Shown here: positions 35,211-63,972 of the stretch, in pieces
How positions within the stretch are numbered: position 1 is the stretch's first letter
How the letters are laid out: the number at the start of each line of letters is the position of its first letter
Source of the DNA: Caldisericota bacterium
Lineage (GTDB): Bacteria; Caldisericota; Caldisericia; UBA6126; JAGPKI01
Direction of reading: 5' to 3'
DNA: 64,000 bases
Assembly (NCBI GenBank): GCA_052034135.1
Contig: JBPOJC010000013.1
Coordinates: 62,538-126,537 of the forward strand
Notes under the pieces: model-generated
What the model saw: only the letters and a program-made list of their open reading frames with translations
Told to the model about the DNA's origin: nothing
Database searches by the model: none
Translations under genes and position numbers: made by a program

Positions 35211-38200
35211 ATGAAAAACTTTTTCTTAAGGATCATTTCAATTATATGTATATTGATTATTACATTTCCAATTTTCAGTGCATTCCCTTTTGATGTCAGA
35301 GGAGATACCTTAAAATACGCAGTTGTTACACCAAAAATTAATGTTAGAAATGCTCCATCTCTATCAGCTGATATAATTTATGTTATTGAAGAAAGAGGAG
35401 AATTTTTAATAACACGTGAAACAAAAGATACTGATGGCAAATTATGGTATAAAGTCAAAATAAATGATAATCTTGAAGGATTCATTGCTTCATGGGTTGT
35501 AGATAGAATAAAAACTGTTCAAACAGAAACAGAGGTAAAAGGAAAAATTGCAATAATTGAAAGTGGCGTAAGAATTCGCACAGAACCTTCTACGGATTCT
35601 GAAATAAAACTTATCGTAAGCGAAAGAGTCGAAAAAGAAATATATGCTGAAATAAAAGATTCTCAAAATCAATTGTGGTATAAAATTAAACTTAATGACG
35701 GCTCTTTTGGATGGGTAGCATCATGGGTAGTTGAAATTAAAGCTAACGTAGAGAATACAAAAAGTGCCAGCACAAAACTAATTATCATTGATCCACCTGT
35801 TAATTTAAGAAAAGGTCCTGGACTTAAATATGAATTAGTTACAGCTATCAATAGCCATCTTGAAACAAGAGGAATATATGAGGCAAAAGATGAATTTGAT
35901 AGAATTTGGTATATGATTAAATTACCGAATGGCGTTGAGGGATGGGTTGCATCCTGGGTGGTCACAGTAAAAGAATATAGCGAAGAAAAGACTCCAGTAT
36001 CTGATAAAGTAGCTGTCATCGATCCAATAGTAAATGTTCGCGATGCTCCGAGTATCGATGGGAAAATTATTACTACTATTAGTAGCAGAGGGGAATTTCA
36101 GATACTTTATCAGGGTAAAGATGTTAATGGAAAGATCTGGTATGAAATAAAACTTTCAAATGGCACTGGATGGGTTGCATCATGGGTTATACAGGTAAAG
36201 AGTAAAAAAGGAGAAGCAGAAACAAACGATTCAGTTAATGTTCGCAAAGGTCCGGGAACAAATTTTGAAAAACTTTTTGAAATGCCTGCTAATTCTGAAG
36301 TGACAATATTAGGAAGTGCTTATATTTCAAGTGGTGAATATTGGCTTGCTATACAATCACAAGATAAAAAAGGGTGGGTTTTAAGTTCACTAATATCTTC
36401 TGTTAAGAAAGATAATCTTGTAAGCATTGAGAGGGTTGGAGCCACTTTTTCTATTTCTCAAAATATTATAATTGAAGTTTATGAAGGTCCTGAAAAAAGT
36501 TACAAAAGAAAGGGTACGCTTGACTCTAAATTTGGTGTTATATCAATTGTTGGAGTTGCAAAAAATTTCCAGGGTGAATTATGGTATCAAATAAAAGGAA
36601 CAAAGTTTGATGAATCATGGGTAGATAACCAAAGTATTGCTCTATTTCTAAAGGAAAACGATTATAAGCAGCACAAAATAACAGGGTTATCATGGGCTTT
36701 AAAGTCAAAAGGTATTGCTTTATCTATAGCTTTCGATGAAGATGGTACTTATGAATTCAATAGTTTTGTATTGGATAATCCTTTAAGGTTTGTAATTGAT
36801 ATAAAGAATTCGATTCTATTTCAAAAAGAGTATGCCGAAGAAATTAACAAAGAAAATATCTCTAAGGTTAAAGCAACACAATTTTCTGTAAATCCAAATA
36901 TTGTAAGGATTGTTCTTGATCTTGGAAAAAATCTTTCTTACATAGTCACGAAAGAAAAGGGTAAGCTTGTAATAGAACTGACTGATTATTCAGAATACTC
37001 CGGACCAAAGCTTTTCATTGGTGGAACAGAGATTGAAAATAATTTACTACTTAAGTATTATAATAATGTACTTTATGTTCCATTGTACATCTTTTCAAAT
37101 ATGACAGGAGGAATAATTTCCTGGGATGAAAAAAGTAAAGAAGCAATATTTAAACTCTACAACAAAGAGTATAGATTCAAGTCAGGAGATATGTATATTT
37201 TCATTAAAGGACCTGAACATGAAAGCAGGCTTGAAATTAATAATCCAATTACTATTTTAAATGACACTCTTTACGTTGCAGTTTCTGACTGCGGAAAAAT
37301 ATTCTCACTTACATACACTAATTTTTCCAATCTTCACTATCTTGATAATACAATAACTGGAATTTACTTGAAAGAAGCAAAAGAAGGGAAAATATTAACA
37401 ACAGAATACGCTTTACCAGCTAAAGTTGAATTAAAAAAAGATGGAAATACACTCAATGTCATAAACAAAAATACACTCCTTGGAAGTTCAATTAAAATTC
37501 CAGATGATGAAATTATTGCTAAAATTATTTCAAACAAAAGAGGACAAAGCCAACAAGCTGAATCAGTGATTCAACTTAATATATCGAAACTTCCAAGATA
37601 TGAGTCAGCATTTCTTTACGATAACCACCAATTAATTCTTACTCTTAAATCAGGCAAGAGTAAAGGCATAGAGGGTAAATTAATTATTGTTGATGCAGGG
37701 CATGGTGCTTTTTCTGAAGATGGCTATTATGACACAGGCGCTATTGGACCAACTGGATTACTTGAAAGCACAGTTAATTTAAAAGTAGCACTAAAACTAA
37801 AAGACCTATTGGAAAAAGAAGGCGCAAAAGTAATTTTAACGAGAGAAAAAGAGCAGGATAAAAATAGCCCAACTCTTGAAAAAAGAGTTGAAGATGCAAA
37901 TAAGAGTGGAGCAGACCTGTTTATTTCAATTCATCAAAATGCCTCTGTTGATCAAAAAGCAAGTGGTACTGAAGTCTATTATTACAATGACAACTCTTCA
38001 CCAATTGCACAGTTTATTTTAGATGCATTGTGCTCAAAAATTGGGCTTATTTCTCGTGGAGTTAAAAAGAGAGGTTTTGCTGTAACGCAGGATATAACCG
38101 TTATGCCCTCAATACTTGTTGAGTGCGCATTTATATCAAATCCTGCAGAAGAGAAATTACTTGGAAGCGATAGTTTTTTAAATTTGATAGCAGAAGGATT

Positions 38201-38234
38201 GCTCGTTGGAGTAAAAAAGTTTTTTGAAAGCTAA
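35211..38234 (+). CDS. Secreted multi-SH3b-repeat cell-wall hydrolase with a C-terminal N-acetylmuramoyl-L-alanine amidase (Amidase_3) domain.
   Basis: There is a signal peptide and six SH3b-like repeats (WYKVKINDNLEGFIASWVV and variants). The C-terminal amidase_3 motifs are IIVDAGHGA...DTGAIGP...E...H. Confidence 0.8.
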   Translation: MKNFFLRIISIICILIITFPIFSAFPFDVRGDTLKYAVVTPKINVRNAPSLSADIIYVIEERGEFLITRETKDTDGKLWYKVKINDNLEGFIASWVVDRIKTVQTETEVKGKIAIIESGVRIRTEPSTDSEIKLIVSERVEKEIYAEIKDSQNQLWYKIKLNDGSFGWVASWVVEIKANVENTKSASTKLIIIDPPVNLRKGPGLKYELVTAINSHLETRGIYEAKDEFDRIWYMIKLPNGVEGWVASWVVTVKEYSEEKTPVSDKVAVIDPIVNVRDAPSIDGKIITTISSRGEFQILYQGKDVNGKIWYEIKLSNGTGWVASWVIQVKSKKGEAETNDSVNVRKGPGTNFEKLFEMPANSEVTILGSAYISSGEYWLAIQSQDKKGWVLSSLISSVKKDNLVSIERVGATFSISQNIIIEVYEGPEKSYKRKGTLDSKFGVISIVGVAKNFQGELWYQIKGTKFDESWVDNQSIALFLKENDYKQHKITGLSWALKSKGIALSIAFDEDGTYEFNSFVLDNPLRFVIDIKNSILFQKEYAEEINKENISKVKATQFSVNPNIVRIVLDLGKNLSYIVTKEKGKLVIELTDYSEYSGPKLFIGGTEIENNLLLKYYNNVLYVPLYIFSNMTGGIISWDEKSKEAIFKLYNKEYRFKSGDMYIFIKGPEHESRLEINNPITILNDTLYVAVSDCGKIFSLTYTNFSNLHYLDNTITGIYLKEAKEGKILTTEYALPAKVELKKDGNTLNVINKNTLLGSSIKIPDDEIIAKIISNKRGQSQQAESVIQLNISKLPRYESAFLYDNHQLILTLKSGKSKGIEGKLIIVDAGHGAFSEDGYYDTGAIGPTGLLESTVNLKVALKLKDLLEKEGAKVILTREKEQDKNSPTLEKRVEDANKSGADLFISIHQNASVDQKASGTEVYYYNDNSSPIAQFILDALCSKIGLISRGVKKRGFAVTQDITVMPSILVECAFISNPAEEKLLGSDSFLNLIAEGLLVGVKKFFES

Positions 38235-38277: not shown

Positions 38278-38351
38278 GCGCCTATAGCTCAACTGGATAG
38301 AGCGACGGTCTACGGAACCGTAGGTTGCAGGTTCAAATCCTGTTAGGCGCA
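38278..38351 (+). tRNA. tRNA-Arg (anticodon ACG).
   Basis: It folds into a cloverleaf by hand: acceptor GCGCCTA/TAGGCGC, D arm GCTC..GAGC, anticodon stem ACGGT/ACCGT with loop CTACGGA, and T arm GCAGG-TTCAAAT-CCTGT. It is 74 nt including the discriminator A. Confidence 0.85.
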
Positions 38352-42629: not shown

Positions 42630-43049
42630 TTAAAAAGCTAATAAGTTTAAACCTATATCTTCATTTCTTTCGCGATAGATTTCTCCATCAAAAATATCTA
42701 TTACTGCTTCCAATGTACCACTAATGATAGCGCTATTTAAGTGTCCTCCGATTACTTTGAATTCGTCATTTGCAAGGTTTACATGAAGGTGCAAGTAAAT
42801 TTCTCCATTCATTACAGACACATTCCCAAGTAAACTAGTAATTTCATGGTTACCCACTATTTTCTCAGTTTTGTAAACCTTATTTGATACATCGTAAACA
42901 CCAATTTCAGCATTATCTGTTGCACCAATACCCGAGATTATTCCTGCTTTAATATTATTGTCATTACAAATTTGTTTTATAGAGCTTACTATTTCTTCTC
43001 CACGATCAACTCTAAATATAATTTTGTTTGCTATTCTTTTATAAATCAT
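42630..43049 (-). CDS. DUF296 (PPC) domain protein. It is the last gene of the Hdr/Frd operon.
   Basis: It is ~139 aa with a beta-rich pattern and GG.H residues typical of the PPC domain. It lies 4 nt downstream of the malic enzyme gene on the same strand. Confidence 0.5.
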   Translation of the reverse strand: MIYKRIANKIIFRVDRGEEIVSSIKQICNDNNIKAGIISGIGATDNAEIGVYDVSNKVYKTEKIVGNHEITSLLGNVSVMNGEIYLHLHVNLANDEFKVIGGHLNSAIISGTLEAVIDIFDGEIYRERNEDIGLNLLAF

Positions 43050-43052
43050 TCC

Positions 43053-44507
43053 TTAAGAAACCTCTTTGATTGCGTACTCAAGAGCTTCATCAATTAAACT
43101 TTGTGGTGGTTTCTTTATAAAACCACTTTCCATAAGAAAGTTTGTTAAATTTCTTGAATAATCTATATCTTCTTTTGCCCTATTATATGCTTCATCCCAA
43201 CTCATATTAACCCTTGCAACTCCATCAGCTATAGCCTGAGTTGCTACATCTGCTGCTTCATTTGGAAATACTCCTGCTTCTTCCATTGTTGGAAGAATAT
43301 TATCTAGATTAATTCCACGTTTCTCTGCAAAATTAGCAAGTGATTTTGCAGCAGCTATTGCCATATTATCAGTTATTTTGCTTGCTCTAACAAGAAGAGC
43401 TCCCTTTAAAATTCCTGGGAAACCTAAAGAATTATTAACTTGATTAGGGAAATCGCCTCTTCCTGTACCAATTATATATGCTCCGGCTTTCTTTGCTTCA
43501 TATGGGTATATTTCTGGTACAGGGTTTGCACAGGCAAATATTATAGGTTTATCATTCATTGCTTTAATCCATTCTGGTTTAACAACTCCCGGTCCGGGCT
43601 TTGAAAGAGAAATCAAAACGTCAGCACCTTTAATTGCTTCTTCAATCGTTTCAATTTTATTAGGATTTGTATTTTTGCAAATATCCCATTTTCTATAAAA
43701 TCTTTTGTCTTCTTCTATGTCTCTCCTCCCGCTATGAAGAGCACCCTTTGAGTCAAACATAATAGCTTTTTTAGGATCAGCGCCAGCAGCCAGATTCAAT
43801 CTTAAGCATGTTGTGTTAGATGATCCTGCACCAAAATATACAATTCTTACATCTTCTAATTTTTTATTAGCGAGCTTTAAAGAATTAAGTAGTCCAGCTA
43901 AAGTGACACAAGCAGTACCCTGCTGATCGTCATGCCAAACTGGTATTTCGCATTCTTCTCTTAATACATCAAGCACTTTATAGCAGTTAGGTTGAGATAT
44001 ATCTTCAAGATTTACTGCTCCAAAACTATATTGAACTCTTTTAACAAATTCAATTATTTTGTCAGGATCATTCTCACCCTTTTCATTTTTACTATCAATA
44101 CATAAAGCAACTGCATCCACTCCACCAAGGTATTTCATAAGAAGTGCTTTACCTTCCATAACTCCAAGCCCACCAGGAGGAGTAACATCTCCATCTCCAA
44201 GCACTCGAGTTGAGTCACTCACTACAGCAACAAGATTTCCTCTGTTTGATAAAGTAAATGATTCAAGATTATTATCTCTTATTGTTGTAGAGACTATAGA
44301 TACTCCAGGGGTATACCAGACATTAAACCAGTTAAACCCATAAAGTGATACTTTTGGAATAGTTTGAACTTTACCACCATAAAATCGGTGGGTGCTATCC
44401 GCCAACTTCTTATAAAAAATAGTTTGAGCTTTTGCGATCTGTTCATCTGTAAAGTTATCAGGAAAACATTTGCTAAGATTGCTTAAATCCGGATTAATTT
44501 TTTCCAT
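43053..44507 (-). CDS. maeB: NAD(P)-dependent malic enzyme (oxaloacetate-decarboxylating malate dehydrogenase).
   Basis: There is a strong colinear match to bacterial malic enzymes: YTPGV, VVSDGT.VLGLG-like VVSDSTRVLGDGDV, VMEGKA, NLEDI..PNC, HDDQQGTA, and the C-terminal GTGRGDFPNQVNN. Confidence 0.85.
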   Translation of the reverse strand: MEKINPDLSNLSKCFPDNFTDEQIAKAQTIFYKKLADSTHRFYGGKVQTIPKVSLYGFNWFNVWYTPGVSIVSTTIRDNNLESFTLSNRGNLVAVVSDSTRVLGDGDVTPPGGLGVMEGKALLMKYLGGVDAVALCIDSKNEKGENDPDKIIEFVKRVQYSFGAVNLEDISQPNCYKVLDVLREECEIPVWHDDQQGTACVTLAGLLNSLKLANKKLEDVRIVYFGAGSSNTTCLRLNLAAGADPKKAIMFDSKGALHSGRRDIEEDKRFYRKWDICKNTNPNKIETIEEAIKGADVLISLSKPGPGVVKPEWIKAMNDKPIIFACANPVPEIYPYEAKKAGAYIIGTGRGDFPNQVNNSLGFPGILKGALLVRASKITDNMAIAAAKSLANFAEKRGINLDNILPTMEEAGVFPNEAADVATQAIADGVARVNMSWDEAYNRAKEDIDYSRNLTNFLMESGFIKKPPQSLIDEALEYAIKEVS

Positions 44508-44536
44508 TTTTACCTCCTAAAATATTTAAATAAAAA

Positions 44537-46225
44537 TTATAACCCTGCTGGCATAAATGGATCAAAATCTTTATTATGCTCTTTAAGCAGGTCGATATTT
44601 CTATATTCAGGTAATAAGATTGGAGAGATTTTTTTTGAATCTATGCTTTCTTTTTTAAGCTCCTCTTCATAAGCCCAAACGTGATCAATGTTCAGTTTGC
44701 CTTTTAAATCTGTCTCCTTCGCTAATCTTGCTGCTTCAATTCCTGCTCTTCTTCCAAAAACATTATAATCAAGAACAGAATTACCCATTAACCTATTTCT
44801 ACCATGAACTCCTCCAGAACATTCTCCAGCTGTTAAAAGATTAGGAAGATTAGTTCTTGTCCATTCATCAATTTCTATTCCGCCATTTTGATAATGAAGT
44901 GTAGGATAGACAAGCATAGGCTCTTTTCTAATATCTATACCAAACCTCTGATATTGCCTTACCATAGCAGGGAAAGCCTTTTCAAGCGTTCCAGGACCCC
45001 TCAAGATTTCAATTATAGGCGAATCAAGCCATATTCCAACATAGCCATCAGGTGTAACTATACCCTTTCCGTCACTACACTCTTTAATAAATGCCGAGGA
45101 TTCAACATCTCTTGGCTCTAAAGGAAATACAAACAATTCTCCATCCTTATTAAGTGGTTGGCCACCAAAACTACGTATTTTTTCCGTTACCAAAAAGCCT
45201 AAAATTTGCTTAGGGTAAATTGAACCTGTCGGATGATACTGAACTGAATCCATATAAATTATTTTGGCTCCTGCTCTATAAGCCATTACCACACCATCCA
45301 TTGTAGCTCCGTAATGATTTGTAGTTTGATATCCTTTAATGTGCAATCTCCCAAAGCCACCCGTTGTCATAATGGTAACTTTTGCTTTTACCACTGTATA
45401 TTCACCAGTTTCCATATTAAACAATATTGCACCAGCTATTTTACCTTCATCATCTTTTATTAGTTCCACGGCAGGTGAATATTCCAAAATTTCTATTCCT
45501 TCAGGATGATTTCTCACTTCATCTCTAAGAACTCGCATTATTTCTGCGCCAGTATAATCTTTACAACAGAGCATTCTCCTCCTTGAAGCACCACCACCTG
45601 AATCTGTTTGGGGATTTCCATCAGGCAATTTATCCCACATAACCCCAAGGTCCTCGAGAAACTTTACAATAAATGGGGCTTCTTTTGTTAATGCTTTTAC
45701 AAGTTCTGGCTTATTGTCAAAGTGACCGCCTCCAATGGCATCAAGATAATGTATTAACGGAGAATCAGAAGGATTAATAGCTGCCTGCATTCCTCCTTGA
45801 GACATCATGGAGTTAGAATCTCCTATACGTAATTTATTAGAAATAATAACCTTAGCACCATTTTTATAAGCCCACAAGGCTGCCTGACAACCTGCGCCAC
45901 CACCACCTATTACTAAAACATCTGTTTCATAATCTACTGGATCAATAGAAAAATTGCGCGGCAATCTCGTATGACTTTCAAGGATATCCACCACTTCCGA
46001 AGTTAAATTTTCCCCCTTATTAGGACCAATTCTTATTATTTTTCTTGCATCTGGACTATAATCTGGGTGATAAGTTGAAAGAACCTTTTCCCTCTCCTCA
46101 GCACTCATAGGTTTTAAAAAGTTTTGTAAGCCCTTTTTAGCATATTCTACCCTCTTGGGGCGAGTTTCTTCAACTTTTTTTAATGATTCAAGCATATAAT
46201 CCGGGTATCCCACTTTTTCCTCCAT
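44537..46225 (-). CDS. Soluble fumarate reductase/succinate dehydrogenase flavoprotein-like subunit (TfrA/FrdA-like) with a ~95-aa N-terminal extension.
   Basis: It has the FAD motif DVLVIGGGGAGCQAA and the SdhA-like core GGG.SRRRMLCCKDYTG.EIM. The covalent-FAD His is replaced by Asn (DSNSMMSQGG), so FAD is predicted to be non-covalent, as in soluble Frd and TfrA. Confidence 0.75.
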   Translation of the reverse strand: MEEKVGYPDYMLESLKKVEETRPKRVEYAKKGLQNFLKPMSAEEREKVLSTYHPDYSPDARKIIRIGPNKGENLTSEVVDILESHTRLPRNFSIDPVDYETDVLVIGGGGAGCQAALWAYKNGAKVIISNKLRIGDSNSMMSQGGMQAAINPSDSPLIHYLDAIGGGHFDNKPELVKALTKEAPFIVKFLEDLGVMWDKLPDGNPQTDSGGGASRRRMLCCKDYTGAEIMRVLRDEVRNHPEGIEILEYSPAVELIKDDEGKIAGAILFNMETGEYTVVKAKVTIMTTGGFGRLHIKGYQTTNHYGATMDGVVMAYRAGAKIIYMDSVQYHPTGSIYPKQILGFLVTEKIRSFGGQPLNKDGELFVFPLEPRDVESSAFIKECSDGKGIVTPDGYVGIWLDSPIIEILRGPGTLEKAFPAMVRQYQRFGIDIRKEPMLVYPTLHYQNGGIEIDEWTRTNLPNLLTAGECSGGVHGRNRLMGNSVLDYNVFGRRAGIEAARLAKETDLKGKLNIDHVWAYEEELKKESIDSKKISPILLPEYRNIDLLKEHNKDFDPFMPAGL

Positions 46226-46921
46226 TTATGTTATATCAAAATTGAGATCTCTCTCAAAATATTTCTTCTTTAAATCCTCTTTGGGCATATTTGCTAATTC
46301 CTTATATCCCTCTTCGAATTTACCATCTTCTATCTCTTTAAGCCTTGTCTCAACAAATTTACCTTTTTTAGACAAATATTTCCCATAAATTCTTCTTGCA
46401 AGAAGTGCAACATTAAACTGTGTTATTTCTGCTGGACATCTTGCAGCACAAAGCCCACAAGCAAGGCAATCAAACGATAATTCAGAAACTTTTTCTATAT
46501 CTCCCTTTATTACTGCTTGAACATAATCCATTACTTGAATATCCTGCGGACAAATCTTTGTGCATGTATTACAAGAAAGACATTTAAAAGTTTCAGGATA
46601 ATATTCTAAAAAAACCTGAGGATCAGGCTCTAATTGGTCTAAGTTGTATATTGCTTTTGGATTTGGTACATAAGGTATCTGAACAATCTGCATATTTTCC
46701 TGCACTACTGTTTGGCATCCAAGTCCACCATGAAGTTTATAATCTTCAGGGAGCCTGTATATTGTAGCACATGCACCACAAAAACCTTCTCTGCATCCAA
46801 CTCCTTTCTTAAGTTTAAATCCTGCATATTCCATTGCCGTAATGATTGTTGAGCTTTCAGGAACATAATACTTTTTACTTAGAATGTAAATTGGTATTTT
46901 TTTTAAATTTATCTGTTCCAT
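46226..46921 (-). CDS. SdhB/FrdB-like iron-sulfur subunit (2Fe-2S plus 4Fe-4S/3Fe-4S).
   Basis: The N-terminal plant-type 2Fe-2S motif is CREGFCGAC...C. Two downstream cluster motifs are CLSCNTCTKICP and CLACGLCAARCP. Confidence 0.75.
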   Translation of the reverse strand: MEQINLKKIPIYILSKKYYVPESSTIITAMEYAGFKLKKGVGCREGFCGACATIYRLPEDYKLHGGLGCQTVVQENMQIVQIPYVPNPKAIYNLDQLEPDPQVFLEYYPETFKCLSCNTCTKICPQDIQVMDYVQAVIKGDIEKVSELSFDCLACGLCAARCPAEITQFNVALLARRIYGKYLSKKGKFVETRLKEIEDGKFEEGYKELANMPKEDLKKKYFERDLNFDIT

Positions 46922-47824
46922 TTAATTTGAAACTAACTCCTTTCTGTTTAATACTTTTTTGGGGTCGATATAATTTTGGTCAAATCCATATATCTCTTCG
47001 CCGAGATCAAATAAAAATGCCATTAATTGTGTAAAATAAAGAACTGGAATCGGTTCAAAGCCATGATGTAATTCAATAATATCTTTTTGCCTTCTATCAA
47101 GGTTAAACTGACAAAGCGGACAACTTGTAACAATGAGTTCAGCTCCACTTTTCTTTGCATTGTTTAAAATGTCATAGCTAAGTGAAGTTACAATCTCTTT
47201 ATCAGAAACAACCTGATAACTACCACAACATCTTGTCCTTAATGGATTATTAACGACAGTTACGGAAAGATTTGTTAATAAATTCTCCATAATCTTAGGA
47301 TCTTCTGGATCATCTATTCCAATCTCTTTTGGCCTTAAGAGAGTACAACCATAATAAGGAGAAACCTTTAGGTCTGGTAGAGGGTTTTTAATATTTTGCT
47401 GCAATTTTTCGGCTTCAATCTCTTTAAGCATTTCTAAAAAATGGACTACTTCCACATCCTGATAGTAATGCTCGATCTCTAAGTACATCACATCGTTAAT
47501 CTTTTCAAGGTCTTCTTTGTTCTTCCTCATTCTTAGATTTGACATCTTTAATGTATTAAAGCACATAGCACATAATGTAACCATTCTATATTCATTATCA
47601 ACGATTCCAGCCTTGTTCATTTCTTCTACCCGAATGAAATTTCTAATCGGTGCAAAATGCCTGATTAAATCATCCGAAGAAAGAGAAGGCACCGCTCCAC
47701 AGCAATTCCATCTTGGAATCTCTACAAATTCAATACCTAATATTTTAGCTACAGCGATAGAAGAAGTTTCAAAACTTTTTGCTTTTGTTTTTAAAGTACA
47801 CCCTGGATAATATGGTATTTTCAT
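46922..47824 (-). CDS. hdrB: HdrB-like / SdhE-like protein with two CCG domains.
   Basis: It has two Cys-rich CCG motifs (YYPGCTL...NCCGAVPS and YYGCTL...RCCGSYQ) plus CPLC. Its start and stop abut the neighbouring genes. Confidence 0.8.
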   Translation of the reverse strand: MKIPYYPGCTLKTKAKSFETSSIAVAKILGIEFVEIPRWNCCGAVPSLSSDDLIRHFAPIRNFIRVEEMNKAGIVDNEYRMVTLCAMCFNTLKMSNLRMRKNKEDLEKINDVMYLEIEHYYQDVEVVHFLEMLKEIEAEKLQQNIKNPLPDLKVSPYYGCTLLRPKEIGIDDPEDPKIMENLLTNLSVTVVNNPLRTRCCGSYQVVSDKEIVTSLSYDILNNAKKSGAELIVTSCPLCQFNLDRRQKDIIELHHGFEPIPVLYFTQLMAFLFDLGEEIYGFDQNYIDPKKVLNRKELVSN

Positions 47825-47839
47825 AAATCTCCCACTCCT

Positions 47840-48244
47840 TTAACTTGTAAACTTTCTAAAAGCTGCAACTACAGCAACTTGAGGTAAGATTTTCCTGTCT
47901 TTTTCATCAATGTTTTTGATATCTATTCTATCAATTGCCTTCCTTAACTTTATTTGCCTTAAAGCCTCTCCCACTTTTGCAACATCTATTCCTCTAGGAC
48001 ACCTTGTCGTACAGGTAAAGCAAGAAGCACAAATCCAGAAAGTCTTAGTGTCTAAGACCTCTTCATCTCCAAGCTCAACGAGTCTCATCATATTTGATGG
48101 TGTAATGTCCATTTCAGCCACGAGCGGACAACTGCCTGAGCAGGTTCCGCATTGCTCACATAGTGTTACAACTTCACCGCTTATTTCGTTAACCTTTTCT
48201 ATAAATTCTACGTTTTTGTCAGATAATATGAGTTTATTGGACAT
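47840..48244 (-). CDS. hdrC: HdrC-like 2x[4Fe-4S] ferredoxin subunit.
   Basis: There are two CxxCxxCxxxCP motifs (CEQCGTCSGSCP and CASCFTCTTRCP) in a 134-aa protein. Confidence 0.8.
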   Translation of the reverse strand: MSNKLILSDKNVEFIEKVNEISGEVVTLCEQCGTCSGSCPLVAEMDITPSNMMRLVELGDEEVLDTKTFWICASCFTCTTRCPRGIDVAKVGEALRQIKLRKAIDRIDIKNIDEKDRKILPQVAVVAAFRKFTS

Positions 48245-48245
48245 A

Positions 48246-50645
48246 TTAAGCTCCTATTCTCTCTGTAAATAATTCTTTTTCTGCAATCTCCCAGAGTCTC
48301 TCTCTTTTCTCTGTTGAAATGGGTTCTTCCTTTTTTAAAAACTTTGTAAGCTCAGTAATGTGTTTATAAAAGTCAGTTAATAGTGAAGCAAGTAATTCAG
48401 CAAATTTTAATCTTTCTGGAGATATACCTTCTTTATTAAGAATTTCTTTTACGAGAGAAACATTTGTTTTAATTTTATCAACAGATCCAGTATAAGGAGA
48501 CGCACGATCATCGCATTCACCTATAAAAATACCATCAGCACCAGACTTAAAAGCATATAAAATTAGCTTCGGCGTTATTCTACTTCCGCTTGGAACTCGT
48601 ATAATTCTTGTTTCAGCTGGATAAGAGAGTCTCGCAGTCCCTATGTTATCAGCAAGTCTATAGGTGCAGGTATTATCTGCAAAAACAAGGATTCTTATTT
48701 CACCTTCTTTTTTTGTTCTTAAAGCTTCATCTATTTGTTCCATTAATTGTTTATTAGTGTAGTATCGAAGGTCTAAAGCATCTTTTGGGCAATCCGCTAT
48801 ACACATACCGCAGCCCTTACATATAACTTCATTAATTTTAGCTTTTCCATTTTCAATCGAAATAGCTTTAAGTGGACAGCTATTTATGCATAACCCGCAT
48901 CCATCGCAAATATCATCATAAACAAAAGCGATAATTGGTTCTATTTCAAATACACTTTTATTCATAAGCCTCATTGCTCTTGAAGCAGAAGCACTCCCCT
49001 GAGCAACTGAATCAGGGATATCTTTAGGACCTTGAGCGCATCCTGCGATAAAAACACCATCGATAAGAGTGTCAACTGGTCTGAATTTAGGGTGAGCCTC
49101 TTGTAAGAAACCATCTGCACTTCTTGCAAGTTTAAGAATATCTGCAATTTTTTCACTTCCACTTGATGGAACAATGCCGGTTGACAAAACTACAAGGTCA
49201 AATTCTCCCTCTATCATCTTTCTACTTAAAGTATCTTCTGAAAGCAGATAAAGCTTTTTGGTTAAAGGGTCTTCTCGAATTTCTGCAACTCTACCACGAA
49301 TAAACTTTATTCCTTCGTTCTGAGCTCTCTTATAATACTCCTCAAAGCCTTTTCCATATGCACGTAAGTCTGTATAGAAAATATAAATGTCTCTTGATGG
49401 ATCAAGCCTTTTAAGTAATTGAGCAAGCTTTGTTGCATACATACAGCAAATTCTTGAGCAATTTTCTCTATCTATCTGCTCATCTCTTGAACCAACACAT
49501 TGTATAAAAGCAATTCTTTTCCCGATTGGCTTAAGTGGAGGACCGGAAGAACCAGTTGCAATAATCCTCTCAAGCTGAAGTGCAGTTAAAACATTGGAAT
49601 ATTTCCCAAAGCCATAAACCGGCTTTTTTTCAGGGTCAAATAATTCATAGCCTGTTGCTGTAATGATTGTATCAACATTAAAACTTATTAGTTCTTCTTT
49701 ATCATCAAAGTTTATTGCTCCCTGCGTACATAACTTTTCACATATACCGCAAATTTTGCCACCCTTGACAAGTCTTTTACAGTTTTTCTCATCAATTAAA
49801 TACTTTCTTGGTACTGCAACAGGATTTTGAACATATACTGCTTTTCTCAAAGATAGCCCTTCATTAAATTCATCTGGCACTTTAACAGGACATTTTTCAG
49901 CGCATATGCCGCAGGCAACACATTTGTCCATATCAATGTATCTTGGTTTCTTTCTGACGGTTACAGTAAAATTACCAAGATAACCTGTAATACTTTCTAT
50001 CTCGGAATAAGTCATGAGCTTTATATTGGGGTGCTCTGCACAATCAGCCAGTTTGGGACCTATGATACATGTAGCACAATCCTCTGTTGGGAATGTTTTT
50101 GATAGCTTTGCCATCTTTCCGCCAATTGCAGGTTCTTTCTCAACAAGGTAAACTTCAAAACCAGAATCACCTAAATCAAGGCTTGCTTGAACTCCAGTAA
50201 TTCCTCCGCCTATAACTAAAACTCGTTTCCCTATTGGTAATTTCTGCCTTTCAAGAGGAATATCCGATCTTACTTTAGCTATTGCCATATTAACAAGGTC
50301 TATTGCTTTGCTTGTAGCTGCGCCTTTACTGAAATGGCACCAGGAACATTGCTCTCTAATATTTGCCATTTCAAAGGTGTATGCATTTAATCCAGCTTTT
50401 TCAACTGTTTTCATAAATGTTTTTTCGTGAAAAAGAGGTGAACATGACGCAACAACTATATGATCAAGATTTTGCTCTTTAATATCATCAATAATGTATT
50501 TTTGACCCTCTTCTGAACACATGTGTTCGTTGTCTCTGACAAACACAACACCTTCTTTATCTTTTACACTTTCTGCAACTTTTTTAACATCAACAATATC
50601 AGAAATATTTCCGCCACAATGGCAGATATAAACGCCAATTCGCAT
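48246..50645 (-). CDS. hdrA: HdrA-like flavoprotein fused to a C-terminal MvhD-like domain (candidate electron-bifurcating subunit).
   Basis: The N-terminal Cys cluster is VYICHCGGNI and the FAD motif is VLVIGGGITGVQASLDLGDSGFEVYLVEKEP. There are several ferredoxin-type CxxCxxCxxxCP motifs. The C-terminal ~140 aa match MvhD (ILVFADNTC...GADGIFIGEC). It is 799 aa. Confidence 0.85.
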   Translation of the reverse strand: MRIGVYICHCGGNISDIVDVKKVAESVKDKEGVVFVRDNEHMCSEEGQKYIIDDIKEQNLDHIVVASCSPLFHEKTFMKTVEKAGLNAYTFEMANIREQCSWCHFSKGAATSKAIDLVNMAIAKVRSDIPLERQKLPIGKRVLVIGGGITGVQASLDLGDSGFEVYLVEKEPAIGGKMAKLSKTFPTEDCATCIIGPKLADCAEHPNIKLMTYSEIESITGYLGNFTVTVRKKPRYIDMDKCVACGICAEKCPVKVPDEFNEGLSLRKAVYVQNPVAVPRKYLIDEKNCKRLVKGGKICGICEKLCTQGAINFDDKEELISFNVDTIITATGYELFDPEKKPVYGFGKYSNVLTALQLERIIATGSSGPPLKPIGKRIAFIQCVGSRDEQIDRENCSRICCMYATKLAQLLKRLDPSRDIYIFYTDLRAYGKGFEEYYKRAQNEGIKFIRGRVAEIREDPLTKKLYLLSEDTLSRKMIEGEFDLVVLSTGIVPSSGSEKIADILKLARSADGFLQEAHPKFRPVDTLIDGVFIAGCAQGPKDIPDSVAQGSASASRAMRLMNKSVFEIEPIIAFVYDDICDGCGLCINSCPLKAISIENGKAKINEVICKGCGMCIADCPKDALDLRYYTNKQLMEQIDEALRTKKEGEIRILVFADNTCTYRLADNIGTARLSYPAETRIIRVPSGSRITPKLILYAFKSGADGIFIGECDDRASPYTGSVDKIKTNVSLVKEILNKEGISPERLKFAELLASLLTDFYKHITELTKFLKKEEPISTEKRERLWEIAEKELFTERIGA

Positions 50646-51211
50646 TAAACTTCCTCCAAAATTTGATACTTTTTTACACCTTCAGCATATAAATCTCTAC
50701 CAGTCGTATCTATGCCAACAATTACAGGAAAATCTTCTACATAAAATTCCATAATTGCTTCGGCTCCAAGATCCTCATAAGCGATAAGTTTGGCACTTTT
50801 AATTGCTTGAGCTAACAGCGCTCCAGCCCCACCTATGGCAATAAAATAAATTGCTTTGTTTTTTATGATAGAATCTATGACTTCTTTTTTTCTCTCACCT
50901 TTTCCAATCATACCTTTTAGCCCATTATCAAGAAGAATTGAAGTATAGGGATCCATACGAGAACTTGTTGTTGGTCCCGCAGAACCAACTGCCATTCCTG
51001 GCTTCGCAGGCGAAGGACCAACATAGTAAATAACTTGATTTTTTATGTCAAATGGAAGAGGTTTGTTAGATTTTACAAGTTCTACAAGTCTTTTGTGGGC
51101 TGCATCTCTTGCTGAATATATTTTTCCACTAAGTAGCACTTTATCGCCAATTTTTAAATTAACGATTTCATCCTCCACTAAGGGAGTATTTAACTTGATT
51201 TCATTTCCCAT
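50645..51211 (-). CDS. fumB: Class I fumarate hydratase (Fe-S hydro-lyase), beta subunit.
   Basis: The fumarase/tartrate-dehydratase beta-type domain is present (GKIYSARDAAHKRL, YYVGPSP, GKGER). Confidence 0.8.
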   Translation of the reverse strand: MGNEIKLNTPLVEDEIVNLKIGDKVLLSGKIYSARDAAHKRLVELVKSNKPLPFDIKNQVIYYVGPSPAKPGMAVGSAGPTTSSRMDPYTSILLDNGLKGMIGKGERKKEVIDSIIKNKAIYFIAIGGAGALLAQAIKSAKLIAYEDLGAEAIMEFYVEDFPVIVGIDTTGRDLYAEGVKKYQILEEV

Positions 51212-51230
51212 CTTTATTTAACTTCCCTTC

Positions 51231-52076
51231 TTATATAATTGCACTTTTATGTCTTGCAGCATGACATTGAATATTTACAGCAACTGGCATGCTTGCTATA
51301 TGACAGGGAAAAGTTAATATATTCACTGCTAAAGCAGTTGTCCTACCGCCAAGGCCCATTGGACCAATACCTAAATTGTTTATTTTATTAAGTAGTTCTT
51401 CCTCTACTGCTTTCCATATAGGATCAGGATTATCTTCATCCAAAGGTCTTAAAAGAGCTTTTTTCGAAAGTATTGCACATTGTTCGAAGTCTCCACCAAT
51501 GCCTACTCCAACAATTATCGGTGGACATGGATTACCTCCGGCTCTTTTCACTCTATCAACAACAAATTTCTTGATACCTTCAATACCATCTGCTGCTGTC
51601 ATCATTTTTACTTCACTCATATTTTCTGAGCCGCCACCCTTAGGGGCAAAATCTATTTTTATTTTTTCACCTGGAACAATTGTGGTATGTATTATAGCAG
51701 GAGTATTGTCCTTTGTATTTTTACGCTCAATCACTGGATCATCAACTAATGATTTCCTTAAATATCCCTCAGTGTAACCGAGCCTAACTCCTTCATTTAT
51801 CGCACTATAAAAATCTCCACCAACAATGTGAACATCTTGTCCAAGTTCAATAAAAAATAGAGCTACTCCAGTATCCTGACACATAGGTATTTGTAATTCG
51901 CTAGCAAGTTCATCATTTTTAATAATTTGAGAAAGTATTTCTTTGCCAACAGGAGACTCTTCTTTTTCCATAAATTCTCTAAGTTTTTTCATTAGATCAT
52001 CGTTTACATAGTAATTTGCATCAATGCAAAGCTTTTTTATAACAGGAATAATTTGAGAAACATCTATCTCTCTCAA
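51231..52076 (-). CDS. fumA: Class I fumarate hydratase (Fe-S hydro-lyase), alpha subunit.
   Basis: It has MCQDTG near the N-terminus and the catalytic Cys ligands. It pairs with the beta subunit immediately downstream. Confidence 0.8.
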   Translation of the reverse strand: MREIDVSQIIPVIKKLCIDANYYVNDDLMKKLREFMEKEESPVGKEILSQIIKNDELASELQIPMCQDTGVALFFIELGQDVHIVGGDFYSAINEGVRLGYTEGYLRKSLVDDPVIERKNTKDNTPAIIHTTIVPGEKIKIDFAPKGGGSENMSEVKMMTAADGIEGIKKFVVDRVKRAGGNPCPPIIVGVGIGGDFEQCAILSKKALLRPLDEDNPDPIWKAVEEELLNKINNLGIGPMGLGGRTTALAVNILTFPCHIASMPVAVNIQCHAARHKSAII

Positions 52077-52088
52077 TTTAGCACCCCT

Positions 52089-52511
52089 TTATTGCTTATG
52101 TTTTTCAATTTCTTCTTTTTGCCACTCTATTGCAGCTTCACCTTTATAAAGATTACCAATTTCTTCTTCTAAATTTGAAACTTCAATTTTAAAAAGCCAC
52201 CCTTTTCCGTATGGATCTTGATTTGGAAAAGTCGGATCATCACTAATGTCTGGATTTACTTCTTTTATAGTTCCAGATAGAGGTGCGTAAATTTTACCGA
52301 CCCATTTACCGGTTTCGACTGTTCCAACAACATCGTCTGCACCTACTTCATCGCCTTCTACGGGCAATTCGATATATGAAATTTCACCTGCAAGTTTTTG
52401 ATAGAAATCTGTAACTCCTACTGTAGCAATGTTACCTTCAAGCTTTACCCACATATGCTCTTTATGATAATAAAGATCATCTGGTAGAAGATACCCTAAA
52501 ACATCACTCAT
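52089..52511 (-). CDS. gcvH: Glycine-cleavage-H-like lipoyl-carrier protein. It is the first gene of the Hdr/Frd operon.
   Basis: The GcvH fold motifs are H.W.K.EG, VG.TDFAQ-like GVTDFYQ, and the lipoyl-Lys box VETGK...IYAPLSGTI, which aligns to VESVKAASDLYAPVSG. Confidence 0.8.
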   Translation of the reverse strand: MSDVLGYLLPDDLYYHKEHMWVKLEGNIATVGVTDFYQKLAGEISYIELPVEGDEVGADDVVGTVETGKWVGKIYAPLSGTIKEVNPDISDDPTFPNQDPYGKGWLFKIEVSNLEEEIGNLYKGEAAIEWQKEEIEKHKQ

Positions 52512-52823
52512 TATTTACCCCCTATTTAAAACAAAATTCCTAAATATTATAAATAGCAAATTTTATCAAATGTTCAATAAAGCAATTCAAACAAAGTATA
52601 GAAATTCAGTATATAAATAGTTTTTGATCTACATTTTGATTATTAATTGTTTATTGATTTATTTATATTTTCAACTTTAGAAGAAAGGTAAAGTATTTTT
52701 TTAACTAATTTTTAATAATAATTTATCTTTTTCCCCAATTAGAATTTGTACTTTGAAATTTTTGATTAGAGAAAGGAAAATTTTTCTTTAAAAAATCTTT
52801 TAAAATTTTTCATTTTTTACTTG

Positions 52824-52837
52824 TTTTTTTTTTTTTT
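52824..52837. repeat. T14 homopolymer tract in the divergent intergenic region between gcvH (-) and the modification cluster (+).
   Basis: This is a direct reading of 14 consecutive T residues. Confidence 0.9.
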
Positions 52838-53018
52838 GATTTACACTACTTCTCGGTAGCTTTTCTTAAATTAGGGATGGAGACTCCGATGAGGAGATTA
52901 AATTATATTACAATCAATAATGAAAACAAAGGAGATGGTGATTCCTATGGGCTAATTTTCTTTTAAAAATTTCATATAAAGCTTGTTTAAAGGTACTCAA
53001 AGAAAGGAGGAGATAAAA

Positions 53019-60883: not shown

Positions 60884-60957
60884 GCGCCTGTAGCTCAGTT
60901 GGATAGAGCATCTGCCTTCTAAGCAGGTGGCCGTGGGTTCGAGTCCCGCCAGGCGCA
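60884..60957 (+). tRNA. tRNA-Arg (anticodon TCT).
   Basis: It folds into a cloverleaf by hand: acceptor GCGCCTG/CAGGCGC, D arm GCTC..GAGC, anticodon stem TCTGC/GCAGG with loop CTTCTAA, and T arm GTGGG-TTCGAGT-CCCGC. It is 74 nt. Confidence 0.85.
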
Positions 60958-61359: not shown

Positions 61360-62370
61360 TTAATCAGTAGCTCCAAAACTTAACTTCAATTTTAAATTAT
61401 ATTCTTTATTTTTAATTTTCCTACTTTCTTTTGCTTTTAATATTTTATCCTCTCTTTCTTTTAATATTTCCTCTGGATTACCTCTATAGTAATCAACAGG
61501 TCTTAAGTAGTTAATACTTGAATGAAGCCTCTCATTGTTATAGTAGTCTACATATTTTGCAATTATTTGTTCTGCGTCAGTGAATGTAGCAGGATAATCT
61601 TTTCTTAAAGCTTCCTGCCTTAATAAACCATTCCACCTTTCTAATTTACCATTAGTTTCCGGGTGGTTTCTTCTTGTTCTAATGTCAATTAGGTAAGCCA
61701 ACGATATTACTTCTCTGAATTCTTTTGAGATAAATTGAGAGCCATTATCATGTATTATCTTTGGAGATATTTCTCTGTTTTTATCAAGGATTTCTTGAAT
61801 GAATAAACTTACGCTCTTTGAACTAATATCTGGTAATAACTTCCATCCTACTATATACCTCGAATAACCATCAAGGACAGCAATAAGAAATCCCCATATT
61901 TCACTCACTTTTATATACATTATGTCCGTATGCCAATGTTCGTTTACTTTAGTTGGTTTTTCTTTGTATTCCTTTTCTGCTCTTCCTTTGATGTTGCCCC
62001 ATCTATTAAGAAGATTATATTTTGTTAAGATTCCGTAAACTTGTTGGGGAGTTAAATAGACGATATCTTCATCTATCATCTGGTAAGTTAATTTCTTATA
62101 GCCAATTCCTGGATTTAATTTTGCATATCTTACTACAATATCTTCCTCTTCTTTTAATACCTTTATTAGGGTTTAACAAAAGGAATCTTAGGGGTTTCTT
62201 TTCCTTTTAACCATCTATAATAGGTAGCTCTGCCTTATTACAAAGCTTTTCTAATATCCACTCCAACTTAAAGCCAGTAAGTTCTTTCATTCTTTTAACT
62301 TCTTCTTTTATTATTTCTTTAAGTTCTTTATCCTTAACATTGTGTCCTATAATTCCCCAAGATTTTTTTT
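61360..62370 (-). pseudogene. IS3-family transposase OrfB (rve/DDE integrase core). The N-terminal part appears frameshifted.
   Basis: The intact ORF 61360..62079 carries the DDE core (WHTDIMYI..., HDNGSQF, NGKLERWN). Between ~62185 and ~62225 all three frames contain stops. The -1 frame out of the A9 site ends at ...PIIDG*, while the conserved OrfB N-terminal box (RYAKLNPGIGYKKLTYQM) is in another frame. Joining them would need two indels. Confidence 0.5.
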
Positions 62371-63261: not shown

Positions 63262-63972
63262 TTATGGAATTTCATAAGTTATTGTTATTGTTTGATTGTC
63301 TCCATCCCATATAACTTCTGCACCTAAATTTTCAGAAACAAATCTTAATGGAACAACTGTTCTTCCATTAACTATCCTTGGAGGCGGATCAACCTCTACT
63401 GGATTTCCATTAACTCTTGCTGTCTTCATATCTATCCAGAGTTCTATAACTCTATCTTCCAATTTGTATGTTACTTTTCTTTCAATTGGATCCCACAGAA
63501 CTTCTGCTAACAATGCTTCTCCAATAAACCTTAGAGGAACCATAGTTCTTCCTGTAGGCTTATCAATAAATGGTGGAACATCAAGTTTGTGTAGAACATC
63601 ATTTACATAAGCGTTTTCATCTCCCACTTTAAGCTTTATTACAATTGAAGATATAATAGGATTAATATATACCTTAACAGGAATTCCGAAATCACCACCA
63701 TTCGAATTTATGTAAATCTCTGACGTGTATGATCTATCATAATCTAAATCATGGGTATCTACGGTAACCTTCACATCAATTTCATTGCCAACCCAGGACT
63801 CAGGATCTACATTAATCCAATCTGCCTTTGGAGTTATAGTTCCCTTAAGAAGACCTCTTTTTGCATTTCTGATTTTTATCAAATTTTGTATAACTGTACC
63901 CTTATTAAGTTTACCAAAATCAATTTTCATAGGTTCAATAGAAAGGCTCGGACAGCATGGAACAACTTTCAT
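63262..63972 (-). CDS. Copper-amine-oxidase N-terminal-domain (stalk-domain) repeat protein. Its 5' end may continue beyond the window.
   Basis: The C-terminus has two ~55-aa repeats (GRTMVPLRFIGEALLAEV...; GRTVVPLRFVSENLGAEV...) that are homologous to the C-terminus of the 4723..6192 protein. The reading frame remains open upstream of the annotated Met to base 64000. Confidence 0.6.
   Translation of the reverse strand: MKVVPCCPSLSIEPMKIDFGKLNKGTVIQNLIKIRNAKRGLLKGTITPKADWINVDPESWVGNEIDVKVTVDTHDLDYDRSYTSEIYINSNGGDFGIPVKVYINPIISSIVIKLKVGDENAYVNDVLHKLDVPPFIDKPTGRTMVPLRFIGEALLAEVLWDPIERKVTYKLEDRVIELWIDMKTARVNGNPVEVDPPPRIVNGRTVVPLRFVSENLGAEVIWDGDNQTITITYEIP

Follow-up and report, generated by a model that had tools for sequence, protein, structure and literature searches.

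The 64-kb window analysed here (64,000 nucleotides (nt) of contig JBPOJC010000013.1, from a Caldisericota bacterium) carries ten co-directional open reading frames (ORFs) on its minus strand, at 42630-52511 in the ORF listing, which bring together a fumarate reductase (Frd) pair, proteins of the heterodisulfide reductase (Hdr) type, a class I fumarase, malic enzyme and a GcvH-like lipoyl protein. We consider it very probable that this operon encodes a soluble, multi-subunit fumarate reductase that is physically tied to the HdrABC-type proteins and fed by malic enzyme and fumarase. An earlier note on this DNA, made from the letters alone, had listed the same ten genes in the same order, and Pfam and NCBIfam profiles support the family of each; the range it gave (43053-52511) starts too late and leaves out the last gene of its own list, that of a PCC/DUF296 protein. 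From the upstream end, the features are as follows.

52512..52982, minus strand: presumed promoter region, an AT-rich intergenic stretch of 471 nt upstream of the first gene (sequence reading)
52089..52511, minus strand: GcvH-like lipoyl protein, 140 amino acids (aa); PF01597, 3e-38; NCBIfam GcvH cut-offs passed
51231..52076, minus strand: FumA, class I (Fe-S) fumarate hydratase alpha subunit, TTG start; PF05681, 6.5e-120; NF004885, 427.9 bits (cut-off 276)
50645..51211, minus strand: FumB, class I fumarate hydratase beta subunit; PF05683, 3e-63; NF005310, 279.1 bits (cut-off 238)
48246..50645, minus strand: HdrA~MvhD fusion, 799 aa; alignments to HdrA 8rvu_a and MvhD 5odc_D
47840..48244, minus strand: HdrC-like protein with 2x[4Fe-4S] motifs, 134 aa; Fer4_17/Fer4_8; TIGR03290, 71.7 bits (below cut-off)
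46922..47824, minus strand: HdrB-like protein with two CCG domains, 300 aa; PF02754 in two stretches
46226..46921, minus strand: FrdB-like iron-sulfur subunit, 231 aa; weak Fer2 match and Fer4 dicluster matches
44537..46225, minus strand: FrdA-like flavoprotein, 562 aa; PF00890, 7.8e-70
43053..44507, minus strand: malic enzyme, 484 aa; PF00390 and PF03949
42630..43049, minus strand: PCC/DUF296 protein of unknown function, 139 aa; PF03479, 4.7e-33

The gaps between these genes, from gcvH-like to PCC, are 12, 19, -1, 1, 15, 0, 0, 29 and 3 nt; eight are as the earlier note had read them, and the fumB/hdrA gap that it had put at 0 is a 1-nt overlap. Shine-Dalgarno-like motifs can be read before most of the ten starts. 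The arrangement is not a product of chance, since loci of independent lineages (L079, L082, L084, L089, L090, L092 and L094) have this gene order too, and this conserved synteny, together with the spacing, suggests that the ten genes are co-transcribed. Consensus scans for promoters and terminators were uninformative, their counts being no higher than (at or below) those expected from shuffles of this DNA, which is 31% GC. Rfam scans of the window returned two tRNAs only, with no riboswitch upstream of the gcvH-like gene and hence no sign of control by a glycine riboswitch.

Fumarate reductase and Hdr-type subunits

We scanned one genome per species for FrdA of this type and examined 83 loci. 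Alignment with E. coli FrdA identifies the catalytic set of the window protein as H331 (in an HPT motif), T347, E348, R351, H444 and R478, which fall on H232, T244, E245, R287, H355 and R390 respectively. The catalytic and dicarboxylate-binding residues are invariant in all 83 homologues, and in all 83 the position of the histidine that binds flavin adenine dinucleotide (FAD) covalently is occupied by asparagine (Asn138 in the window protein). Enzymology of FrdA His44 has established that non-covalent FAD allows fumarate reduction and abolishes succinate oxidation in FrdA/SdhA. Fumarate reduction is therefore the favoured activity, the catalytic residues being complete and the covalent-FAD histidine absent, and by its sequence the protein groups with the non-covalent, soluble-type reductases. 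Its closest curated NCBIfam model is TfrA (338.5 bits, cut-off 718), and an AlphaFold model of moderate quality (pLDDT 69) has its best fold match in E. coli FrdA (1kf6_A, E 1.7e-25). Pfam finds no C-terminal PF02910 domain in the chain, which ends about 60 aa past the FAD domain. At the other end lies an extension of about 95 aa (window 44537-44830 as listed), conserved among homologues and outside the reach of the FrdA sequence alignments; many of its residues are invariant, helices are confidently predicted at residues 9-31 and 42-52, and it may stand in for the absent C-terminal domain or serve in docking.

The FrdB-like partner has a [2Fe-2S] motif and two full CxxCxxCxxxCP motifs, and its 12 cysteines are kept in 76-78 of 78 homologues. 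It is encoded separately from the HdrB-like protein, with a gap of 0 nt between the two genes, and the operon encodes no membrane anchor; the earlier note was right on both points. TfrB, by contrast, is a natural fusion of FrdB-like and CCG parts, as seen from the positions matched in its NCBIfam profile, and that profile matches the window proteins only in pieces (26-48 bits, cut-off 385). An analogy with adenylylsulfate (APS) reductase and Qmo was considered and dropped: no AprA model is among the best 25 of 56 NCBIfam matches, and the recurrent neighbours are all C4-dicarboxylate enzymes.

On the Hdr side, residues 2-643 of the HdrA~MvhD fusion align to residues 13-654 of a solved methanogen HdrA (8rvu_a; 727 bits, E 2e-217). 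The HdrA part is full length, comprising the FAD domain and both ferredoxin domains, the inserted and the C-terminal one, and the best NCBIfam model for the fusion is HdrA2 (947 bits, below the cut-off of 1100). The MvhD-like part (about aa 646-799; window 48246-48700), which aligns to 5odc_D, retains two of the five canonical cysteines in the pattern D-C-S-C-S, its motifs being FADNTCTY, VPSGS and GECDDRASPY as against the canonical FCCNWCTY, VMCSG and GGCHPGDCHY. The five-cysteine pattern occurs in none of 133 close fused homologues, most of which have no cysteine at all at these positions; across this fused subfamily (about 800 aa; P0136-P0275) the patterns are DCSCS, DTSSS, DASSS and similar, with an invariant Asp in first place. 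All five cysteines are present in the separate MvhD genes that we inspected in Frd loci. The fused domain probably lacks the [2Fe-2S] cluster through which electrons from hydrogenase or Flx enter, and with only two of five canonical cysteines it is doubtful as an electron-entry module.

The HdrB-like protein aligns over its full length with solved HdrB chains and has all ten cysteines, nine of them kept in 44 of 44 homologues and C9 in 42 of 44. Its best NCBIfam match is SdhE, the CCG 'anchor' of methylmenaquinol:fumarate reductase (MFR), followed by HdrB, both below cut-off. The earlier note had regarded TfrAB as the only characterised enzyme to combine an Frd flavoprotein with a CCG subunit, and so passed over the type-E SdhABE/MFR enzymes, to whose SdhE the window protein comes closest. 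In the HdrC-like protein, eight cysteines in two CxxCxxCxxxCP motifs are kept in 39 of 39 homologues. Pfam, NCBIfam and the alignments to solved structures thus support every one of the Hdr, MvhD and Frd assignments that the earlier note had put forward for checking by profile.

The GcvH-like lipoyl protein

The first gene of the operon encodes a protein without cysteine that carries the lipoyl-lysine motif ETGKWVGK. Sequence comparison places it in a paralog subfamily distinct from housekeeping GcvH: it is 70% identical to an operon copy from Coprothermobacterota as against 40% to a housekeeping GcvH, and the signature of its subfamily is E[ST]GKWvG[RK]IYAP as opposed to ESVKAvsDiySP. No gcvT, gcvP or lpd gene was found in the 64-kb window. 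In three loci (L121, L159 and L169) a member of the subfamily coexists with a separate gcvH-gcvPA-gcvPB operon, the H protein of which is 31-33% identical to the window protein. The gcvH-like gene heads the operon in close relatives that differ in their upstream flanks (L084, L090-L094), and the Coprothermobacterota-type loci L089, L095 and L096 keep it at 68-71% identity, with a lipoate-protein ligase gene between gcvH-like and fumA and methylmalonyl-CoA pathway genes upstream. A gene for LplA directly follows gcvH-like in eight related loci, not in the window.

A survey of the neighbourhoods of the 80 nearest metagenomic relatives extends this picture. Given enough flank, all loci of at least 65% identity show the fumAB-Hdr-Frd operon, and a CCG-domain protein is encoded within 6 kb of the gcvH-like gene in 27 of the 52 loci with adequate flank; this association of the subfamily with CCG proteins is far above chance placement. 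More distant members adjoin other CCG sets, namely hdrCB with GltD~HdrA, an HdrD-like with a NarI-like gene, and a GlcD-Fer4-CCG fusion with LarA, which suggests a general partnership of the lipoyl protein with CCG enzymes. Cysteine is absent from 34 of 81 subfamily members.

Individual loci show what these sets look like. The gcvH-like gene stands beside LarA and an 831-aa GlcD~Fer4~CCG fusion in L112, L116 and L117 (about 10000-14350), and beside HdrD-like and NarI/HdrE-like genes in L151 (about 10000-12700); in L153 only the NarI-like gene was detected. In L137, L139, L141 and L144 it adjoins hdrC-hdrB-GltD~HdrA-MvhD without Frd, with an FrhB-like ORF in L139 and L141. A general GcvH link at the Frd loci of Aminicenantes was considered and rejected, since the GcvH matches there (40% identity) belong to housekeeping gcvTHP operons that lie on the opposite strand at a distance of about 7 kb.

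Distribution and known counterparts

FrdA of the window type is present in at least 594 species-level genomes, with carriers among WOR-3, Caldisericia, Hydrothermota, Cloacimonadota, Aminicenantes, Gallionella/Sulfuricella and Alphaproteobacteria and in the symbiont that the tubeworm Escarpia laminata harbours. In the 83 loci examined, many of them on short contigs so that all counts are lower bounds, FrdB is adjacent in 77, HdrA is a neighbour in 48, MvhD in 50, HdrB in 46 and HdrC in 40, and a four-subunit 2-oxoacid:ferredoxin oxidoreductase lies near FrdA in 31-33. The co-occurrence for which the earlier note had proposed a search is thus found in many phyla, and gene content, cofactor ligands, catalytic residues and synteny are conserved. 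Megablast of the Hdr-Frd core against plasmids gave no match.

Genes that could supply or consume the substrate recur as well. In six other loci the gene immediately after frdA encodes a malic enzyme of 69-74% identity, and in L066 such a gene is about 3 kb off; fumAB are present in five FrdA loci, sucCD precede fumAB in L079 and L082, and in L089, L095 and L096 the operon is flanked by genes of the methylmalonyl-CoA pathway. The neighbours malic enzyme, fumAB and sucCD point firmly to fumarate/succinate as the substrate pair, and the co-location of all these genes bears out the logic of the earlier note, which had read a route from pyruvate and malate through fumarate to succinate. The PCC/DUF296 gene is a lineage-specific tail of the operon, found after malic enzyme only in the close Caldisericia-type relatives L090, L092 and L094 and in none of the 83 FrdA loci. 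In L082 a TPR protein and a 146-aa ORF, which may be DsrE-like by eye, stand between fumB and hdrA~mvhD (4051-5179) in an operon that otherwise resembles that of the window.

What varies among relatives is the module through which electrons could enter. No hydrogenase, formate dehydrogenase, FlxABCD or GltD-like gene was found in the 64-kb window, and L088 is a minimal stand-alone unit of HdrA~MvhD, HdrC, HdrB, FrdB and FrdA only. In L087, hdrA-mvhD-mvhG-mvhA-hycI lie directly upstream of a fused HdrA~MvhD-hdrCB-frdBA set. A GltD-like protein is encoded in L001, L085, L005 and L089: in L001 and L085 it is a large NAD(P)H protein, encoded with hdrC and hdrB beside relatives of the window FrdA, and in L089 and other relatives the GltD-like NAD(P)H module is fused to HdrA. 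In L089 (15453-19735) and L005 (2193-10844), whose carriers are Coprothermobacterota and another Caldisericia lineage, malic enzyme is followed directly by a further hdrC-hdrB pair and by a gene for a GltD~HdrA-like protein (1468 or 1472 aa), so that at least L089 has two Hdr modules in one locus. In L005, MvhD and an FrhB-like ORF come after the GltD~HdrA-like gene; the L089 contig stops inside the large gene.

The earlier note had suggested that the operon may be a new way to run the reductive tricarboxylic acid (rTCA) branch, but the idea of a bifurcating, Hdr-coupled fumarate reductase has already been put forward (PMC6315080, PMC11636981, PMC7282089, PMC13147460), and by its sequence the window core belongs to the 'TfrAB + Hdr(-Flx)' clusters for which it was proposed. 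In the Escarpia symbiont and its relatives, tfrAB are interleaved with flxABCD-hdrABC and korABCD, and an electron-bifurcating complex was proposed to feed fumarate reductase and 2-oxoglutarate:ferredoxin oxidoreductase (Rubin-Blum et al., PMC6315080). Putative clusters of TfrAB with Flx-Hdr (and KorABCD) are also described from Endoriftia, Thioflavicoccus and large sulfur bacteria (PMC6315080, PMC11636981, PMC4914600), and in Endoriftia genes of the tfrAB-Hdr type are co-expressed (Mitchell et al., PMC11636981). The window FrdA and FrdB are 62% and 47% identical to those of the Escarpia symbiont locus L057, where the pair is followed by hdrC, hdrB, kor, hdrA and mvhD, and the symbiont complex, too, is proposed to be soluble and ferredoxin-coupled. 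The symbiont clusters differ in having FlxABC as NADH input, a separate five-cysteine MvhD, kor genes and a role in the rTCA cycle, none of which applies to the window; the window in turn has its degenerate HdrA~MvhD fusion, fumarase, malic enzyme, GcvH-like protein and PCC protein. The proteobacterial Frd loci carry the cluster described as flxABCD-hdrABC in the Escarpia symbiont (PMC6315080); in our annotation only HdrA, MvhD and an FrhB-like ORF are labelled in them.

The 'succinate operon' of Pseudoclostridium thermosuccinogenes combines fumarate hydratase, FlxABCD-HdrABC and fumarate reductase, and a ferredoxin-reducing fumarate reductase has been argued for this organism (Koendjbiharie et al., PMC7282089; also a 2019 preprint by Koendjbiharie and van Kranenburg). 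As in the window, a soluble fumarate reductase of two subunits is encoded in one operon with fumarase and Hdr, and in this fermentative anaerobe succinate formation was proposed to be coupled to ferredoxin reduction, as we propose for the window. The likeness is one of description; its Flx NADH module has no equivalent in the window, and neither a lipoyl protein nor malic enzyme is reported there. TfrAB and MvhAGD-HdrABC of Methanothermobacter likewise couple fumarate reduction to ferredoxin reduction when taken together, and TfrAB shares with the window a non-covalent-FAD flavoprotein (TfrA being its closest NCBIfam model) and a CCG-type thiol-oxidising module linked to FrdB-like clusters. 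The window proteins differ by scoring below the TfrA and TfrB cut-offs, by having the FrdB-like and CCG parts unfused and by the encoding of Hdr and Frd as one unit with a single HdrB; coenzyme M (CoM) and coenzyme B (CoB) are, moreover, presumably absent from the window organism.

Three further systems resemble parts of the operon. A 2026 survey (PMC13147460) sums up the proposed Hdr-linked clusters and cites the purified five-subunit NADH-dependent fumarate reductase of Hydrogenobacter thermophilus (Miura 2008, as cited there). That enzyme is soluble and adds further Fe-S and flavin subunits to FrdA/FrdB; in the window, a full HdrA takes the place of a GltD-like NADH subunit. Its FrdC, FrdD and FrdE are reportedly GltD-, HdrC- and HdrB-like. 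In sulfur oxidisers with sHdr, the lipoyl protein LbpA, which has two strictly conserved cysteines, is genetically tied to the sHdr system (Cao et al. 2018, PMC6067878). Both there and here an Hdr-like CCG complex is accompanied by a lipoyl protein of the GcvH-like kind, in many cases together with an LplA-type ligase of its own; the window protein has no cysteine, its HdrA is canonical where sHdrA is short and non-canonical, and the substrate in the sHdr system is sulfur, not fumarate. Lastly, HdrA2B2C2 of Methanosarcina acetivorans, with a fused HdrA-MvhD, catalyses ferredoxin-dependent heterodisulfide reduction with no extra dehydrogenase (PMC5296606). It matches the window in its fusion of about 790-800 aa with HdrB and HdrC and no separate dehydrogenase, but MvhD Fe2S2 motifs are reported there where the window has lost cysteines, and its donor is F420H2/ferredoxin and its acceptor CoMS-SCoB, as opposed to the Frd pair.

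Against this background, three features appear to be undescribed: the cluster-less MvhD fusion in an Hdr-Frd operon, an Hdr-Frd operon with no NADH, H2 or formate input module in cis, and the CCG-associated GcvH paralog subfamily with its own lipoate ligase in relatives. No paper turned up in a literature search for the term 'electron-bifurcating fumarate reductase'. We know of no organism from which an Hdr-linked fumarate reductase has been purified, so that bifurcation is at the stage of hypothesis in all these systems.

Proposed reaction, alternatives and flanking genes

In the scheme that we favour, malic enzyme would convert pyruvate, CO2 and NAD(P)H to malate, the two-subunit Fe-S fumarase malate to fumarate, and FrdA, with FAD bound non-covalently, fumarate to succinate. 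The electron chain would run FrdA - FrdB - HdrB - HdrC - HdrA(FAD) - ferredoxin, with the [2Fe-2S] and two [4Fe-4S] clusters of FrdB bridging HdrB/HdrC and FrdA. The likely junction is that between HdrB and FrdB, given the abutting genes and the precedents of the TfrB fusion and SdhABE. Flavin-based bifurcation at HdrA would couple the exergonic fumarate branch to ferredoxin reduction and would conserve energy without quinones. As donor we favour the dihydrolipoyl group of the co-encoded GcvH-like protein, which would be oxidised at the CCG site of HdrB; H2, by way of an Mvh-type hydrogenase encoded elsewhere, would be the second choice. A lipoyl donor would make the operon a bacterial counterpart, free of CoM and CoB, of the methanogen Tfr + Hdr pair.

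Complex formation, reaction direction, bifurcation and the lipoyl role are what we infer, and our confidence in them varies. Bifurcation to ferredoxin, which needs a mid-potential donor, is plausible in that the complete bifurcation-type HdrA has been retained, and we place it just short of an even chance. The earlier note had taken HdrA-MvhD as the bifurcating module, a claim that the canonical HdrA supports and that an MvhD with two of its five cysteines weakens. Standard potentials (about -290 mV for dihydrolipoyl, +30 mV for fumarate and -450 mV for ferredoxin) would make the reaction of 2 dihydrolipoyl with fumarate and oxidised ferredoxin exergonic. The lipoyl-protein-linked alternative of the earlier note has gained real comparative support from the distinct subfamily, its coexistence with a housekeeping copy in three loci, LplA in eight and CCG proximity in 27 of 52; dihydrolipoyl acting at the predicted intact HdrB site is the most interesting donor candidate, though a tentative one whose chances lie below even. 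Expression and physiology in P. thermosuccinogenes (PMC7282089) and Endoriftia (PMC11636981) fit a ferredoxin-coupled fumarate reductase. Taken whole, as a quinone-independent, cytoplasmic, ferredoxin-bifurcating fumarate reductase with dihydrolipoyl GcvH-like protein as favoured donor, the scheme could in our view equally well prove right or wrong.

Several points weigh against it. To our knowledge, no protein of the family has been purified in the configuration of the window. Three of the five MvhD cysteines are lost, leaving the canonical three-port bifurcating architecture incomplete; no electron-donor module was found in the operon or the 64-kb window, and relatives carry other donors in cis (the fused GltD-like NAD(P)H module of L089, the Mvh hydrogenase of L087). 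Where E. coli FrdA has Glu49, 71 of the 83 homologues have Gln, as SdhA does. The GcvH-like protein itself passes the cut-offs for bona fide GcvH (NF002270, 129.8 against 117 bits; TIGR00527, 121.6 against 115.85), no such gene was found within 8-10 kb in the fused-type loci L079, L082, L087 and L088, and the window protein lacks the cysteines typical of the LbpA of sHdr (PMC6067878).

As an alternative, HdrB and HdrC might merely conduct, with no thiol chemistry, as the CCG subunit of type-E SdhABE/MFR does; H2, formate or NAD(P)H would then deliver electrons through a module encoded elsewhere, for instance Mvh with a second canonical HdrA, HdrA would bifurcate to fumarate and ferredoxin, and the gcvH-like gene would be a co-regulated passenger. 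Such modules do accompany relatives, as the Mvh set of L087, the GltD-like fusions of L089 and others and the flxABCD-hdrABC of the Escarpia symbiont (PMC6315080) attest; a contig that shares an identical gene has HycI, HypA and a polyferredoxin-like gene at a point about 9.5 kb upstream of where the window starts, and in many Frd-Hdr loci no gcvH-like gene was found. A conducting role sits poorly, however, with the Cys-poor MvhD-like docking or entry domain in all 133 fused homologues, with the retention of ten HdrB active-site cysteines that a mere wire would not obviously need, and with the GcvH-like/CCG association; we think it unlikely, though by no means negligible. The enzyme could instead be a simple oxidoreductase between ferredoxin and fumarate: ferredoxin, reduced for example by pyruvate:ferredoxin oxidoreductase, would donate at HdrA, and all electrons would pass downhill by way of HdrC, HdrB and FrdB to FrdA without bifurcation. 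The ferredoxin-dependent HdrA2B2C2 of M. acetivorans (PMC5296606), the minimal unit L088 with no third input and the lost MvhD ligands would all agree with this, but a redox span of about 0.45 V would be wasted, every domain of a bifurcation-type HdrA is retained, and the link to the GcvH-like protein and the varied NAD(P)H and H2 modules of relatives would be left unexplained. We regard it as improbable.

The pathway might also run the other way, from succinate through fumarate and malate to pyruvate, as it does in syntrophs that oxidise propionate or succinate; by confurcation, the Hdr module would then spend reduced ferredoxin on the uphill step of oxidising succinate. Decarboxylation is the normal direction of malic enzyme, methylmalonyl-CoA genes flank L089, L095 and L096, the Gln at the Glu49 position is that of SdhA, and many carriers belong to Cloacimonadota and Aminicenantes, suspected syntrophs (PMC12590816). 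The universal loss of the covalent-FAD histidine nevertheless makes this direction unlikely; a homologous operon occurs in the succinate producer P. thermosuccinogenes (PMC7282089) and the cluster lies inside rTCA clusters of tubeworm symbionts (PMC11636981, PMC6315080), and we judge oxidation to be quite improbable. That the flavoprotein acts on another substrate altogether, as an L-aspartate oxidase or some other enoate- or urocanate-type reductase, seems scarcely credible: NadB models reach 257 bits, not far under the 338 of TfrA and all below cut-offs, and the PF02910 domain is missing, but the dicarboxylate-binding and proton-delivery set is complete and invariant, there is a dedicated FrdB-like partner, and the recurrent neighbours are fumarase, malic enzyme, succinyl-CoA synthetase and 2-oxoglutarate:ferredoxin oxidoreductase.

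It is normally by way of membrane quinones that fumarate reduction serves to conserve energy. A soluble, ferredoxin-coupled enzyme as favoured here would explain how quinone-poor fermenters and candidate phyla, among them Caldisericia, Coprothermobacterota, Cloacimonadota, Aminicenantes and WOR-3, gain energy from the reductive C4 branch or drive it, and the compact variant, with five redox genes and no extra donor module, is attractive for reconstitution and cryo-electron microscopy. The cluster-less MvhD fusion and the CCG-associated GcvH paralog sharpen the open biochemical question. A bolder version of the proposal, which we consider doubtful, takes the GcvH-like protein to be the physiological dithiol/disulfide substrate of HdrB, the operon to encode a lipoyl-protein-dependent, ferredoxin-coupled (bifurcating) fumarate reductase that would unite the methanogen Tfr and Hdr reactions in a bacterium without CoM and CoB, and Cys-free paralogs to be a hitherto unrecognised, protein-bound redox carrier of many CCG enzymes, which would include HdrB, HdrD-like proteins and GlcD-CCG lactate dehydrogenase-like proteins. 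If it were true, the long-sought thiol partner of bacterial HdrABC-type enzymes would be identified, the role of lipoate beyond 2-oxoacid dehydrogenases would reach from sulfur oxidation to central carbon metabolism, and many other clusters with CCG proteins would acquire a testable model.

The genes next to the operon on both sides are unrelated to it (a carboxylesterase, an MGMT-like protein, hypotheticals and a radical-SAM protein). Further off in the window, a PduL-type phosphate propanoyltransferase (6468-7043, minus strand) and a family-III CoA-transferase (20986-22170, plus strand) would both fit a succinate/propionate branch lying downstream of the reductase. Contig L170, which has an identical TP_methylase gene, is the one that carries, at 1-1346, the HycI and HypA genes mentioned above, HycI being a maturation protease of NiFe-hydrogenase, along with the polyferredoxin-like Fer4 gene; their presence beyond the window start makes an H2 route in the organism possible, and a [NiFe] hydrogenase, a candidate H2 input, is probably encoded near them in this lineage. 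The two tRNA genes of the window lie at 38278-38351 and 60884-60957, both on the plus strand, and an rve-family integrase of an insertion sequence (IS) element (61360-62079, minus strand) adjoins the second. Secreted or cell-wall proteins with Cu_amine_oxidN1 domains are encoded at 4723-6192 and 63262-63972, and a 1007-aa ORF of the same secreted or cell-wall type at 35211-38234 has SH3_3, AMIN and Amidase_3 domains.

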